Program-made: the position numbers and the translations under genes
In this document: in pieces, positions 55,295 to 57,456 of the stretch
Layout of the letters: the number at the start of each line of letters is the position of its first letter
Position numbering within the stretch: position 1 is the first letter of the stretch
The notes under the pieces: model-generated
Database searches by the model: none
What the model was told of the DNA's origin: nothing
The model's input: only the letters and a program-made list of their open reading frames with translations
IMG/VR virus record: IMGVR_UViG_3300020190_000008
DNA from: a virus
Strand: one strand, 5' to 3'
DNA: 64,000 nucleotides

Positions 55295-55735
55295 TTATTT
55301 TTTGATTTTAATTAATTTATACCAAGCTCTTTCGTGTAGAAAATAGATAAAGGGTTTAATTAATAATTCACCCAAACCAATTAAAGAAGAAACTTCTAAT
55401 GAAGCACCAAGAAATAATGCCGTAGCTATTGTTGTCAGTGTTGCAAAAAAACGATACGTTAAAGTTTTTAGTATGTGTCTAATGACAACCGAATCTTCTT
55501 TTATTGTTGTAATGTATGCAGTATTATTTTTTACAACACAATTACCAACACAACTAATATGCCATTTATAATCATTTATTTCTGGCATCCAGTCTTTTGT
55601 TGTTTGAGTGTGTCCGTCAATTATAATATCTGAAACCAAGATTTCATTTCCGTTTTCAAGTAATCTCCATCTTTCTGTATCATTTTTTGATACGGTATTA
55701 TATCTAATTTGATATGTTTTGTTCTGTGTTTTCAT
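55295..55735 (-). CDS. Soluble domain fused to a DUF2061-like membrane domain
   Basis: RHILKTLTYRFFATLTT...KPFIYFLHERAW. Confidence 0.75.
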   Translation of the reverse strand: MKTQNKTYQIRYNTVSKNDTERWRLLENGNEILVSDIIIDGHTQTTKDWMPEINDYKWHISCVGNCVVKNNTAYITTIKEDSVVIRHILKTLTYRFFATLTTIATALFLGASLEVSSLIGLGELLIKPFIYFLHERAWYKLIKIKK

Positions 55736-56183
55736 TTGTTAGATAGTTTAAAACATCTTCTTGTATTGAAATATCAACCATTTTTTTCCAATAATCGTCA
55801 TCATTTTTTATTGAATTTCTAATTCCTGTTGCGGAAATACCACCAATATCTTTTGGTGGAATGAACTCATTAATTTCATATCCAACACCTCTACCAAAAT
55901 TAACAGACTCAATATCTGGAATAACAATAACTTTAACGTCGTCATTTTTTGACTGGTGATATTTTTTAATCATAGAAACCGTCTGTTCAGTTGTAAAAGG
56001 ATTTTTTTCATCTGGTTCAATATCCCTAACCATAATTAAAACTGGACTTCCATTTTTTAATTTTTGTTGAATAAGTTCGATATGTCCATAATGATACGGT
56101 TGGAAGCGGCCTATAAAAATTGCATATTTTTTACTTTCATTATCTGTTGCTCTTCCACCATAATTTTTTCTTTCCCAATTCAT
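55704..56183 (-). CDS. Cytidylyltransferase-like (HxGH) nucleotidyltransferase
   Basis: FIGRFQPYHYGH, NPF, GRGVGY, ISATGIR. Confidence 0.8.
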   Translation of the reverse strand: MNWERKNYGGRATDNESKKYAIFIGRFQPYHYGHIELIQQKLKNGSPVLIMVRDIEPDEKNPFTTEQTVSMIKKYHQSKNDDVKVIVIPDIESVNFGRGVGYEINEFIPPKDIGGISATGIRNSIKNDDDYWKKMVDISIQEDVLNYLTNENTEQNISN

Positions 56184-56635
56184 ATATGTTTAATAATTTC
56201 ATTTAATGTTATTTGTGGGTCAACACCAGTTGTATCAAGGTCTATAAATTTTTCTAATGGTTTTTCATATTCATCCGTGTGATAATGTTCTCTACCACGT
56301 ATGTCTGTTGTGTGAACATAAAATTCAACCAATAAATTTTGTAAGTCATATTTAAAACTTTCTCTTAGTTCTTTGTAAGGTGCAACCAAGCTTACAATCA
56401 CATCATATCCTTGAACTAATAAGAATTTTGCAATGTCTTGTGCTCTTTTTATATTTTCTTCGCGACCTTTTCTACCGTATTTTTGGTTATTAAAAAGTCT
56501 TCTTAATTCATCACCATCAATATGGAATACTTTATTTCCATATTCTTTTTCTAAAATTGTTTTTAACATTGTTGCCAAAACAGTCTTACCAGCACCTGGT
56601 TGTCCTGTAAACCAATAAATCTTTTTTTCTTTCAT
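56180..56635 (-). CDS. cysC: Adenylylsulfate (APS) kinase
   Basis: WFTGQPGAGKT, IDGDELR, GREENIKR, VSLVAPY, YEKP. Start likely MKEKK at 56635. Confidence 0.88.
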   Translation of the reverse strand: MKEKKIYWFTGQPGAGKTVLATMLKTILEKEYGNKVFHIDGDELRRLFNNQKYGRKGREENIKRAQDIAKFLLVQGYDVIVSLVAPYKELRESFKYDLQNLLVEFYVHTTDIRGREHYHTDEYEKPLEKFIDLDTTGVDPQITLNEIIKHI

Positions 56636-56637
56636 AA

Positions 56638-57456
56638 TCAAAAATAACCGAATTGATCGTAAAACCATTGATGTTTTTGTTTTATCCAGTTACAAGCCGG
56701 TGTTCCTAAAACTTCTTTATAATCAAGTTTTAATGGTTGTATTTTAGATTTAATTGTGTGGTCACCATAAATTCCATAAACAGAGTCATCTTCAACAGTT
56801 ATTTGTTCTACATTATTAAAATCGTGTTCAAAATAAGGTAATTCAAGATAATTATAAATTCTTTCCATTTCTTTTTTTGGGTTCGAAGTAAAATCTTCGA
56901 ATTTTACAAATAACATTTTTTGATTAATACCTTCTTTGAAAACTTGATAAAGTCGTTCTACGGCCAAACCAACTGGTTGAGACTGTGACCAAATATCAAT
57001 TCTTTTTTCTGTTGTTGTTCCTTGCATCTGTGCGTGATTAACAATACCAGAATCCATATGTTGACTTTTTCTAAAATTCTTTTCCATAGAAGCAAAAATT
57101 CCACGTAAATCTCTAACCATACAAATTATTTTAGGTTCTGGATAAAAAGAATTTAAAAAACCATAATGAATACCCCAACCCCTACTTTTATCTAAGATGT
57201 ATGGTCTATCTGTTACACCGTTAAAAAAACCCAACATTCCTTGATTACAGAAATTTAAGAATCCATTTTTCATCAATTCAGCGTCTTGTGCTTTGAATTC
57301 TGGAGATGATGTGTAATTAGCTCTGGCTGCGTAAACCAATTCTAAAACACCCGATGTTGGCGTTACGTAAAATTCAGGATTTTGTCCCATGACATTTTGA
57401 AGTAATGTTGATCCAGCTCTGGGGAGTGAGCTTTGGAAAAATATTTTTTGTACCAT
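56638..57456 (-). CDS. PAPS-dependent sulfotransferase
   Basis: 5'-PSB SLPRAGSTLL, DKSR, 3'-PB VRD....FAS, VKFEDF..NP. Confidence 0.88.
   Translation of the reverse strand: MVQKIFFQSSLPRAGSTLLQNVMGQNPEFYVTPTSGVLELVYAARANYTSSPEFKAQDAELMKNGFLNFCNQGMLGFFNGVTDRPYILDKSRGWGIHYGFLNSFYPEPKIICMVRDLRGIFASMEKNFRKSQHMDSGIVNHAQMQGTTTEKRIDIWSQSQPVGLAVERLYQVFKEGINQKMLFVKFEDFTSNPKKEMERIYNYLELPYFEHDFNNVEQITVEDDSVYGIYGDHTIKSKIQPLKLDYKEVLGTPACNWIKQKHQWFYDQFGYF

Follow-up and report, generated by a model that had tools for sequence, protein, structure and literature searches.

A small HxGH nucleotidyltransferase coupled to APS kinase in a marine phage is a candidate minimal ATP sulfurylase

The stretch of DNA considered here, further referred to as the window, is the 64,000-nucleotide sequence of IMG/VR virus record IMGVR_UViG_3300020190_000008, and its element of interest is a cluster of four genes located on the minus strand. 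In the direction of transcription these genes encode a 272-residue sulfotransferase dependent on 3′-phosphoadenosine 5′-phosphosulfate (PAPS) (56638-57456; PF13469, 2.5e-19; PF00685, 4.8e-11), which is the consumer of the module product; a trimmed adenosine 5′-phosphosulfate (APS) kinase, CysC, having 151 amino acids (aa) if counted from the probable start at M12 (56180-56635, with the longest open reading frame (ORF) extending to 56668; PF01583, 3.7e-19); an HxGH nucleotidyltransferase of 159 aa, below called NTase, which is a candidate for the role of minimal ATP sulfurylase (55704-56183; PF01467, 3.7e-9, 37 bits); and a DUF2061 protein of 146 aa (55295-55735; PF09834, 3.6e-13). The stop codon of the sulfotransferase gene occupies positions 56640-56638 and is separated by 2 nt from the probable ATG of the kinase at 56635. 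The longest kinase ORF begins 33 nt further upstream, within the sulfotransferase gene (56635-56668), and the ATG at 56635 is taken as the probable start because most homologues have 151 aa. Kinase TGA and NTase ATG share the tetranucleotide ATGA at 56183-56180, and the NTase gene overlaps that of the DUF2061 protein over 32 nt. The abutting or overlapping arrangement of four genes, claimed in the first-pass annotation made from the sequence, is thus confirmed by the ORFs, by Pfam and NCBIfam matches and by direct reading of the junctions; at the kinase-sulfotransferase border the tight packing stands while the overlap does not, since the kinase probably abuts. The window has about 30% G+C and encodes a tail sheath protein and a DNA polymerase, so that it represents phage DNA and a part of a large uncultured marine myovirus-like phage. 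The sizes of related IMG/VR contigs (37-137 kb) and their completeness, rated as 12-53%, suggest a full genome of roughly 260-300 kb. Public data also contain contigs of 166-265 kb. Comparison of the module with cultured phages by blastn gave no match.

Two genes of the cluster are assigned readily. The kinase scores 69.7 bits against PF01583 (gathering cut-off 21.1), and its P-loop GQPGAGKT together with the motifs DGDELR, REENIKR and VAPY is invariant in 21 relatives. Alignment with the same relatives reveals a shortened C-terminal lid, which explains why the score of 66.7 bits remains under the cut-off of the NCBIfam equivalog (138.7). At E≤1e-5 the profile of the kinase family matches 24 PDB sequences, each of them an APS kinase or a domain of this type (best 8a8h, 1e-15), and the step from APS to PAPS is well supported by homology. 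The sulfotransferase exceeds the cut-offs of both families (70.8 bits against 27 for PF13469 and 43 bits against 22 for PF00685), and the stretches PRAGSTLL, similar to the 5′-phosphosulfate-binding motif, and RDLRGIFAS, similar to the 3′-phosphate-binding motif, are visible in its translation.

The source of APS is a different matter. To our knowledge only two types of enzymes are described for sulfate activation, Sat and CysDN. Scanning of the whole window by tblastn with Sat, Sat-CysC, CysD, CysN and CysNC seeds revealed the kinase as the sole match, found by the bifunctional Sat-CysC and CysNC seeds, and thereby confirmed the earlier statement that cysD, cysN and sat are absent from the window. 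Genes of the Sat and PAPS_reduct families were also absent from five related viral contigs, which are 12-53% complete.

An exhaustive search for the NTase family gave 1621 representative matches, 412 of them at E≤1e-10, and very similar copies are plentiful in marine metagenomes. The family signature comprises GRWQPxHxGH, VRDxxxDxxNP(F/Y)T, IPDIESVNYGRGVGY and ISATxIR, where the catalytic motifs HxGH and ISxTxxR are invariant or nearly so. The motifs which had been quoted as Sat-like are indeed present in the translation: HYGH at residues 31-34 (in the context GRFQPYHYGH), GRG at 97-99 (FGRGVGY) and ISATGIR at 116-122. The presence of HxxH and ISGTxxR-type motifs does not discriminate Sat because the whole superfamily carries them. 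Sat is further characterized by a sulfate/APS-binding motif QxRN just before HxxH and by a GRDHAG loop, of which the GRG triplet of the NTase could be a counterpart. The Pfam scan of the window NTase did not find PF01747 (Sat), and the family profile had no Sat match in PDB at E≤1; two distant family members touch PF01747 with 26.0 and 23.8 bits (cut-off 24.3), no single stretch passing it alone.

The closest similarity is found elsewhere. The best NCBIfam matches of the window NTase are archaeal nicotinamide mononucleotide (NMN) adenylyltransferases (NMNATs), and the nearest solved proteins by sequence belong to the same group (family profile against 1f9a, 3e-15). The AlphaFold2 (AF2) model of the NTase (mean confidence, pLDDT, 91) ranks NMNAT 1f9a first (Z 13.7), followed by phosphopantetheine adenylyltransferase (PPAT, 12.7), NadM (11.8) and nicotinic acid mononucleotide adenylyltransferases (about 10), whereas Sat proteins follow with Z 9.9 for 1v47 (130 residues aligned with a root-mean-square deviation of 3.4), 8.1 for 2gks and 7.0 for 1x6v. 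Judging by this model, likeness to the Sat catalytic domain is at the superfamily level only, and both sequence and fold rankings place the NTase in the HIGH nucleotidyltransferase superfamily as a separate member of very small size, not as a Sat. The stretch of about 25-32 residues which in NMNATs extends from the third strand to "GYEV" (NAIW...PPFDLVYSGNPLV...), and which we take to be the NMN/nicotinamide-binding part of the archaeal enzyme, is missing from the NTase family: the profile alignment skips NMNAT residues ~77-108, and in direct alignment with Methanothermococcus NMNATs the sequence VNFGRGV, in the family VN(F/Y)GRGV with a near-invariant arginine inside, replaces about 25 residues. 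Two near-invariant arginines are specific to the family, R53 in VRD, standing instead of NMNAT "GS", and R98.

These data bear on the simplest alternative, that the protein is a true NMNAT serving NAD salvage of the phage. Best matches in NCBIfam, PDB and fold comparison to archaeal and NadM NMNATs, the naming of some homologues by the Joint Genome Institute (JGI) as nicotinic acid mononucleotide adenylyltransferase and the commonness of NadM-Nudix genes in phages speak for it. The scores of 52.3 bits against TIGR01527 (cut-off 127) and 46.1 bits against NF002243 (cut-off 181.2) are nevertheless far below the curated levels, the NMNAT stretch is lost, and the neighbours include neither Nudix nor NadV nor other NAD genes, being CysC, sulfotransferases and AprBA instead. 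Besides, NadD and a PPAT-like gene are already present in all five NTase carrier genomes checked, so that the NTase does not fill the housekeeping roles of NadD or PPAT. We regard salvage of NAD as highly improbable.

The evidence for a function in sulfate activation is primarily provided by the genomic partners of the family. Proteins of at least 200 aa make up 57 of the 150 best representatives at 50% identity, and in 44 of them an APS-kinase domain is found (best Pfam E-value 9.5e-69), placed either before or behind the NTase. Fused and stand-alone NTases interleave in the tree, where well-supported branches force at least seven changes of state. Genome contigs were scanned only with the motif GRWQPFH[NK], as the wider alignment is too diverse, and so narrow a pattern shifts the sample in favour of one family branch; it yielded 63 loci, seven of which are true archaeal NMNATs. 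The loci come from Saprospiraceae, Chitinophagales, Acidobacteriota, Omnitrophota, Planctomycetota, Saccharibacteria and other bacteria of the candidate phyla radiation (CPR), as well as from Woese- and Nanoarchaeota, Gammaproteobacteria and a SAR11 single-cell genome, and in nearly all that belong to the family a canonical CysC with 35-56% identity to bona fide CysC is fused or adjacent. In the related phage locus L005 a full-length CysC (4.9e-71) stands directly upstream of the NTase. If two genes on either side are taken into account, Sulfotransfer_3 is the commonest neighbouring family (15 of 168; for example, L009 and L008). Hence, in place of homologues unlinked to cysC, which had been named as a finding capable of overturning the proposal, the opposite was obtained in nearly every locus examined.

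Several arrangements of the family deserve mention on their own. A conserved operon of Omnitrophota and Planctomycetota (L025, L029, L034, L036, L038, L045 and L050; ~4500-11200 in each) combines genes for a sulfotransferase-like protein (341 aa), a radical-SAM/B12-binding protein (468 aa), an arginine-deiminase/amidinotransferase-like protein (311 aa), the NTase-CysC fusion, a methyltransferase (257 aa) and a product of ~480 aa, and looks like a pathway to some sulfated metabolite. The cultured Xylella phage Bacata (L006:3142-4318) and Stenotrophomonas phage DLP_6 (L007:3590-4321) encode fusions of ~245 aa consisting of a divergent APS-kinase-like P-loop domain and an NTase domain, in Bacata directly after a NADAR-domain gene. 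Other partners are DUF6717 at the C-terminus of the 249-aa protein P0139 and an unannotated N-terminal region of ~240 aa in P0126, P0160 and P0216 (~375 aa).

Constant company of a kinase is compatible with another acceptor as well. The NTase might adenylylate a different small anion (phosphonate, phosphoester, selenate or other oxyanion), whose adenylyl derivative would be 3′-phosphorylated by the CysC-like kinase to give a cofactor or intermediate resembling PAPS but different from it. A parallel is given by PPAT (CoaD) and dephospho-CoA kinase (CoaE), which eukaryotes combine in the CoA synthase: the product of an HxGH adenylyltransferase of ~160 aa is phosphorylated by a P-loop 3′-OH kinase, and the NTase and CysC would act in the same order. 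The model is about as close to PPAT as to NMNAT, some divergent branches have kinases devoid of the DGD motif and no sulfotransferase nearby, and the presence of radical-SAM, amidinotransferase-like and methyltransferase genes in the Omnitrophota operon resembles a natural-product pathway. The parallel is incomplete, since the partner kinase of the NTase is CysC and a PPAT-like gene exists separately in the carriers. Moreover, the kinases joined to the NTase or encoded next to it belong to canonical CysC, with E-values against PF01583 down to that of the best fusion, the window kinase keeps APS-kinase signatures and its profile retrieves only APS kinases from PDB, recurrent neighbours are PAPS-type sulfotransferases and APS reductase, and canonical sulfurylases are depleted in the carriers. 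A different acceptor therefore appears unlikely, while deserving some consideration.

The depletion just mentioned was estimated in 33 genomes carrying the NTase: Sat was found in two of them, full-length CysD in six and a short CysD-like gene in three, so that about two thirds have neither Sat nor CysD. A closed Pyrinomonadaceae chromosome of 4.5 Mb encodes CysC together with the NTase, while Sat, CysD and all members of PAPS_reduct are absent, and a Saccharibacteria genome of 1.2 Mb has the fusion beside a sulfotransferase and no other gene of the pathway. As a control for incompleteness of metagenome-assembled genomes (MAGs), 201 genomes of Omnitrophota were sampled, 92 with CysC; Sat or CysD-like genes accompany CysC in 74 of the 86 genomes without the NTase versus 2 of the 6 with it (Fisher p=0.008), and after pooling with the Omnitrophota of the motif scan in 4 of 11 NTase carriers (p=0.0008). 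Two unpublished genomes enter the counts as single items, G020 among the 33 carriers (and as a CysC match) and G746 among the Pelagibacterales considered below, and no conclusion hinges on either. The search for a canonical sulfurylase elsewhere in the genome, which concerned relatives only, found none in five related phage contigs, in approximately two thirds of the cellular carriers and in five SAR11 genomes. The short CysD-like protein (~270 aa) matches only positions 1-205 of the CysD model and is widespread in Omnitrophota, where it occurs also in 23 of 109 genomes without CysC (examples are G177:C103:11358-11966 and, from the Acidobacteriota locus L008, 6365-7168).

When sulfite is oxidized or sulfate reduced through the APS pathway, AprBA classically works together with ATP sulfurylase, and the SAR11 group offers an independent APS setting of the NTase. 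Of 151 Pelagibacterales genomes sampled, 119 contain a member of the NTase family. In one SAR11 type a kinase of 164 aa and an NTase of 131 aa adjoin a gene for a 116-aa product, behind which stand aprA, aprB and an AprM-like gene, and location of the kinase-NTase pair beside aprA-aprB-aprM was observed in all four loci fetched (L157:6140-10511, L158, L159 and L160). AprA (991 bits) and AprB (193 bits) both exceed equivalog cut-offs. In two loci of another SAR11 type (L127 and L128) aprBA is 0.9 kb away. Neither Sat nor CysD was detected in the five SAR11 genomes checked, in line with the description of P. ubique as possessing aprBA, cysC and cysQ and lacking sat/cysDN; Table 3 of the same work lists cysC and aprA in the same strains (PMC5069961). 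In SAR11 the kinase-NTase pair may provide the connection from APS to sulfate that is otherwise missing; its NTase would then act downstream of AprBA and in the direction of ATP and sulfate formation.

Taken together, linkage to CysC, sulfotransferase neighbours, depletion of Sat and CysD and adjacency to aprBA, all belonging to comparative genomics, support the earlier suggestion of a stand-alone minimal ATP sulfurylase, and we assign a probability of about 65% to the reading in which the NTase gives the phage its own supply of PAPS from sulfate. With lesser assurance, yet still leaning to its side, we consider the broader proposal that the HxGH domain of ~125 residues is a third class of ATP sulfurylases which arose when an NMNAT-like ancestor lost its NMN pocket and which supplies or consumes APS in phages, CPR, DPANN, Acidobacteriota, Omnitrophota, Planctomycetota and most SAR11 (there as the missing partner of AprBA, for which the absence of Sat was noticed long ago), the DUF2061 protein being its membrane partner.

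Several observations weigh against these proposals. Sat is a more distant relative of the NTase than NMNAT and PPAT are, in sequence as well as in fold, and the sulfate motif QxRN is absent from the window NTase, which has GRFQPYH in its place as NMNATs do. Sat or CysD is also present in about a third of the carriers, and in a MAG of Acidobacteriota (L008) the NTase-CysC fusion lies directly beside cysD-cysN, where a second sulfurylase looks redundant; such adjacency was sought in all loci and found in this one only. Two genomes carry the NTase without CysC detectable genome-wide. The fusions of the Xylella and Stenotrophomonas phages adjoin NADAR and their kinases have no DGD motif, the kinase-NTase pair of SAR11 type 1 adjoins an enoyl-CoA hydratase, and both branches may differ in function. 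Since most genomes are MAGs, absence of a gene may mean missing data, and the genomes with the NTase are not phylogenetically independent. Finally, the host of the phage could supply APS itself.

Coexistence with CysDN or Sat in some carriers is also what one might expect if the NTase were a non-catalytic, sulfurylase-like regulatory partner of APS kinase, comparable with the APS-kinase-like allosteric domain of fungal Sat. Degenerate partner domains of this kind do exist: in Entamoeba histolytica an additional domain of nucleotidyltransferase fold is joined to APS kinase, as in the NTase fusions, and represents a degenerate Sat with substrate binding lost (bioRxiv 10.64898/2026.04.02.716029). 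The NTase family differs in keeping all catalytic motifs and is not derived from Sat by sequence. Conservation of the HxGH histidines and of serine and arginine of ISxTxxR in very divergent members is not expected for an inactive domain, and many carriers have no other sulfurylase, which makes a purely regulatory role quite improbable. Structural prediction of a complex between the kinase and the NTase had a score of 0.00, which counts neither for nor against their binding.

If the NTase is a sulfurylase, the order of events in the phage-infected cell can be envisaged as follows. The NTase would transfer the adenylyl group of ATP to sulfate with formation of APS and pyrophosphate, acting as an enzyme of a family distinct from Sat and CysDN; both the substrate and the direction are proposed from the genomic context. 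The trimmed APS kinase, translationally coupled to the NTase, would phosphorylate the 3′-OH of APS, yielding PAPS and ADP and pulling the unfavourable first step forward. The sulfotransferase would then use PAPS to sulfate an acceptor, releasing the sulfated product and 3′-phosphoadenosine 5′-phosphate. The reaction of ATP sulfurylase is strongly unfavourable, so that tight coupling or fusion of the NTase to the kinase makes sense. The DUF2061 protein would complement the pathway as a membrane-embedded accessory of sulfate activation, which may tether the enzymes or assist the entry of sulfate.

The DUF2061 protein of the window scores 50.2 bits against PF09834 (gathering score 23.1) and consists of a beta-rich N-terminal part (~1-80) and a two-helix hydrophobic hairpin (~81-145), with helices predicted at 81-109 and 115-145 in an AF2 model of low confidence built on a three-row alignment; with pLDDT of 51 this model is unusable for fold search. 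The N-terminal part had no match in the protein atlas. In L001-L003 the NTase gene is likewise followed by this one, and another DUF2061 gene is found near the NTase in the more distant phage locus L005. P0169 is a fusion of NTase and DUF2061; a search for longer proteins containing the DUF2061 part gave no fusions, those known having surfaced by other routes. In a survey of 201 Bacteroidota genomes 16 had DUF2061, and in 11 of these it resides inside a cys operon: as DUF2061-CysC-CysD in three, as a 284-aa DUF2061-CysC fusion followed by CysD in one, together with a CysH-like gene and CysD in four, with a CysH-like gene only in one and beside CysD in two. No cys genes were seen near DUF2061 in any of 30 loci of Pseudomonadota, which makes the link lineage-specific. 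Cys operons together with fusions to CysC and NTase support membership of DUF2061 in sulfate activation of Bacteroidota and of these phages, as was initially supposed, and its proposed role in sulfate supply is a guess. The Bacteroidota genes head their operons (loci include L093:1477-2331, L082, L084, L086, L078, L080, L081 and L083), and proteins with two DUF2061 in tandem occur in L082, L084 and L087. In L005 (467-8149) the set of DUF2061, CysC and NTase is surrounded by genes for KdsA, a cytidylyltransferase similar to CMP-KDO synthetase and argininosuccinate synthase, and DUF2061 is separated from CysC by an inserted gene for a NUMOD3/TnsA-like endonuclease.

The surroundings of the cluster in the window point to the possible acceptor. 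Upstream, on the same minus strand, genes are located for a 294-aa protein with phrog_8954 as its sole match (57460-58344), a GT9-like protein (58361-59278; PF01075, 2.5e-4, under its cut-off) and a GT8 glycosyltransferase (59271-60014; PF01501, 1.4e-24), and the order of these three is kept in L002. On the other side, and also on the minus strand, lie genes for a protein of the GlcNAc-transferase family (53492-54736; PF11397, 2e-69) and an HtrL/YibB-domain protein (51825-53495; PF09612, 8.4e-20), while ORFs of repeat-rich fibre-like genes flank the entire block (48911-51202 and 60100-62580). The three co-oriented upstream genes (57460-60014) probably build the acceptor glycan. The module sits among glycosyltransferase genes and between fibre-like genes, and the acceptor is likely a glycan of the virion or of the cell envelope; in terms of the pathway it would probably be a glycan made by the flanking glycosyltransferases or a component of the virion or host envelope. 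The only matches of the sulfotransferase among solved proteins are weak and belong to protein-tyrosine sulfotransferases (protein-tyrosine sulfotransferase 1, E 9e-5), which gives a weak hint that a protein rather than a glycan could be modified.

The same neighbourhood admits an explanation in which APS is supplied by Sat or CysDN of the host, the NTase produces a nucleotide-activated sugar or polyol for the glycosyltransferases, like HldC/RfaE domain II or TagD, and adjacency to cysC is due to chance. GT8, GT9-like and other glycosyltransferases do flank the module, GT9 enzymes typically use ADP-heptose as a donor, and HldC and TagD, also small, come from the superfamily of the NTase. Their fold similarity to the NTase model (Z 5.5 and 6.2, respectively) is, however, far weaker than that of NMNAT, PPAT and Sat, the link with CysC, including both orders of fusion, holds across phyla without nearby glycosyltransferases, and the ATGA junction couples the NTase to the kinase, not to a glycosyltransferase. 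An activated sugar as the product is accordingly quite improbable.

Returning to the NTase as an ATP sulfurylase, its relation to the known systems can be outlined. With Sat (PF01747; 1v47 of T. thermophilus, Sat-CysC 2gks of Aquifex and human PAPSS1 1x6v) it has in common the fold of the HxGH/HIGH superfamily, equivalents of the HxxH and ISxTxxR motifs and the proposed reaction; like Sat it occurs joined to APS kinase with either domain first (compare the kinase-sulfurylase PAPSS with Sat-CysC), and it shares with Sat the company of sulfotransferases and AprBA. It differs in that Sat has a catalytic domain of ~200 aa plus an N-terminal beta-barrel domain against a core of ~125 aa in the NTase, in that QxRN of Sat corresponds to GRFQP, and in its closer sequence similarity to NMNAT. 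From the archaeal and NadM NMNATs (TIGR01527, NF002243; 1f9a, 1ej2 and 2qjo), with which GRxQPxHxGH, NPFT, IPDI and SxTxxR are common, the NTase is distinguished by loss of the above-mentioned stretch, by the gain of R53 and R98 and by sulfur enzymes instead of NAD enzymes as partners. CysDN (TIGR02039/TIGR02034) has an unrelated fold, CysD being a PP-loop ATPase and CysN a GTPase; the NTase occupies the same position in the pathway beside CysC and seems to replace CysDN in many genomes. As the NTase has no GTP-coupling partner, its reaction would need to be pulled by the kinase and pyrophosphatase.

In this reading the NTase would represent a new enzyme family for a known reaction, sulfate activation. 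Reconstructions of the sulfur cycle from genomes score the activation step as absent when both Sat and CysDN are missing; if the assignment is true, many pathways considered incomplete would be completed in phages, CPR, DPANN, Acidobacteria and Omnitrophota. A full-text literature search, whose coverage left out most subscription journals, gave no description of the NTase family or DUF2061. Phage cysC has been treated as an auxiliary gene of assimilatory sulfate reduction, the NTase being unmentioned (PMC10914622), and the genes counted in this way would then be parts of self-sufficient sulfation modules instead. An enzyme linking APS to sulfate would also be gained for SAR11, which is the most abundant bacterium of the sea. 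The NTase itself would be the smallest known sulfurylase and could serve enzymatic regeneration of PAPS, and for the phage one would expect that the virion or the infected cell carries glycans or proteins modified with sulfate.

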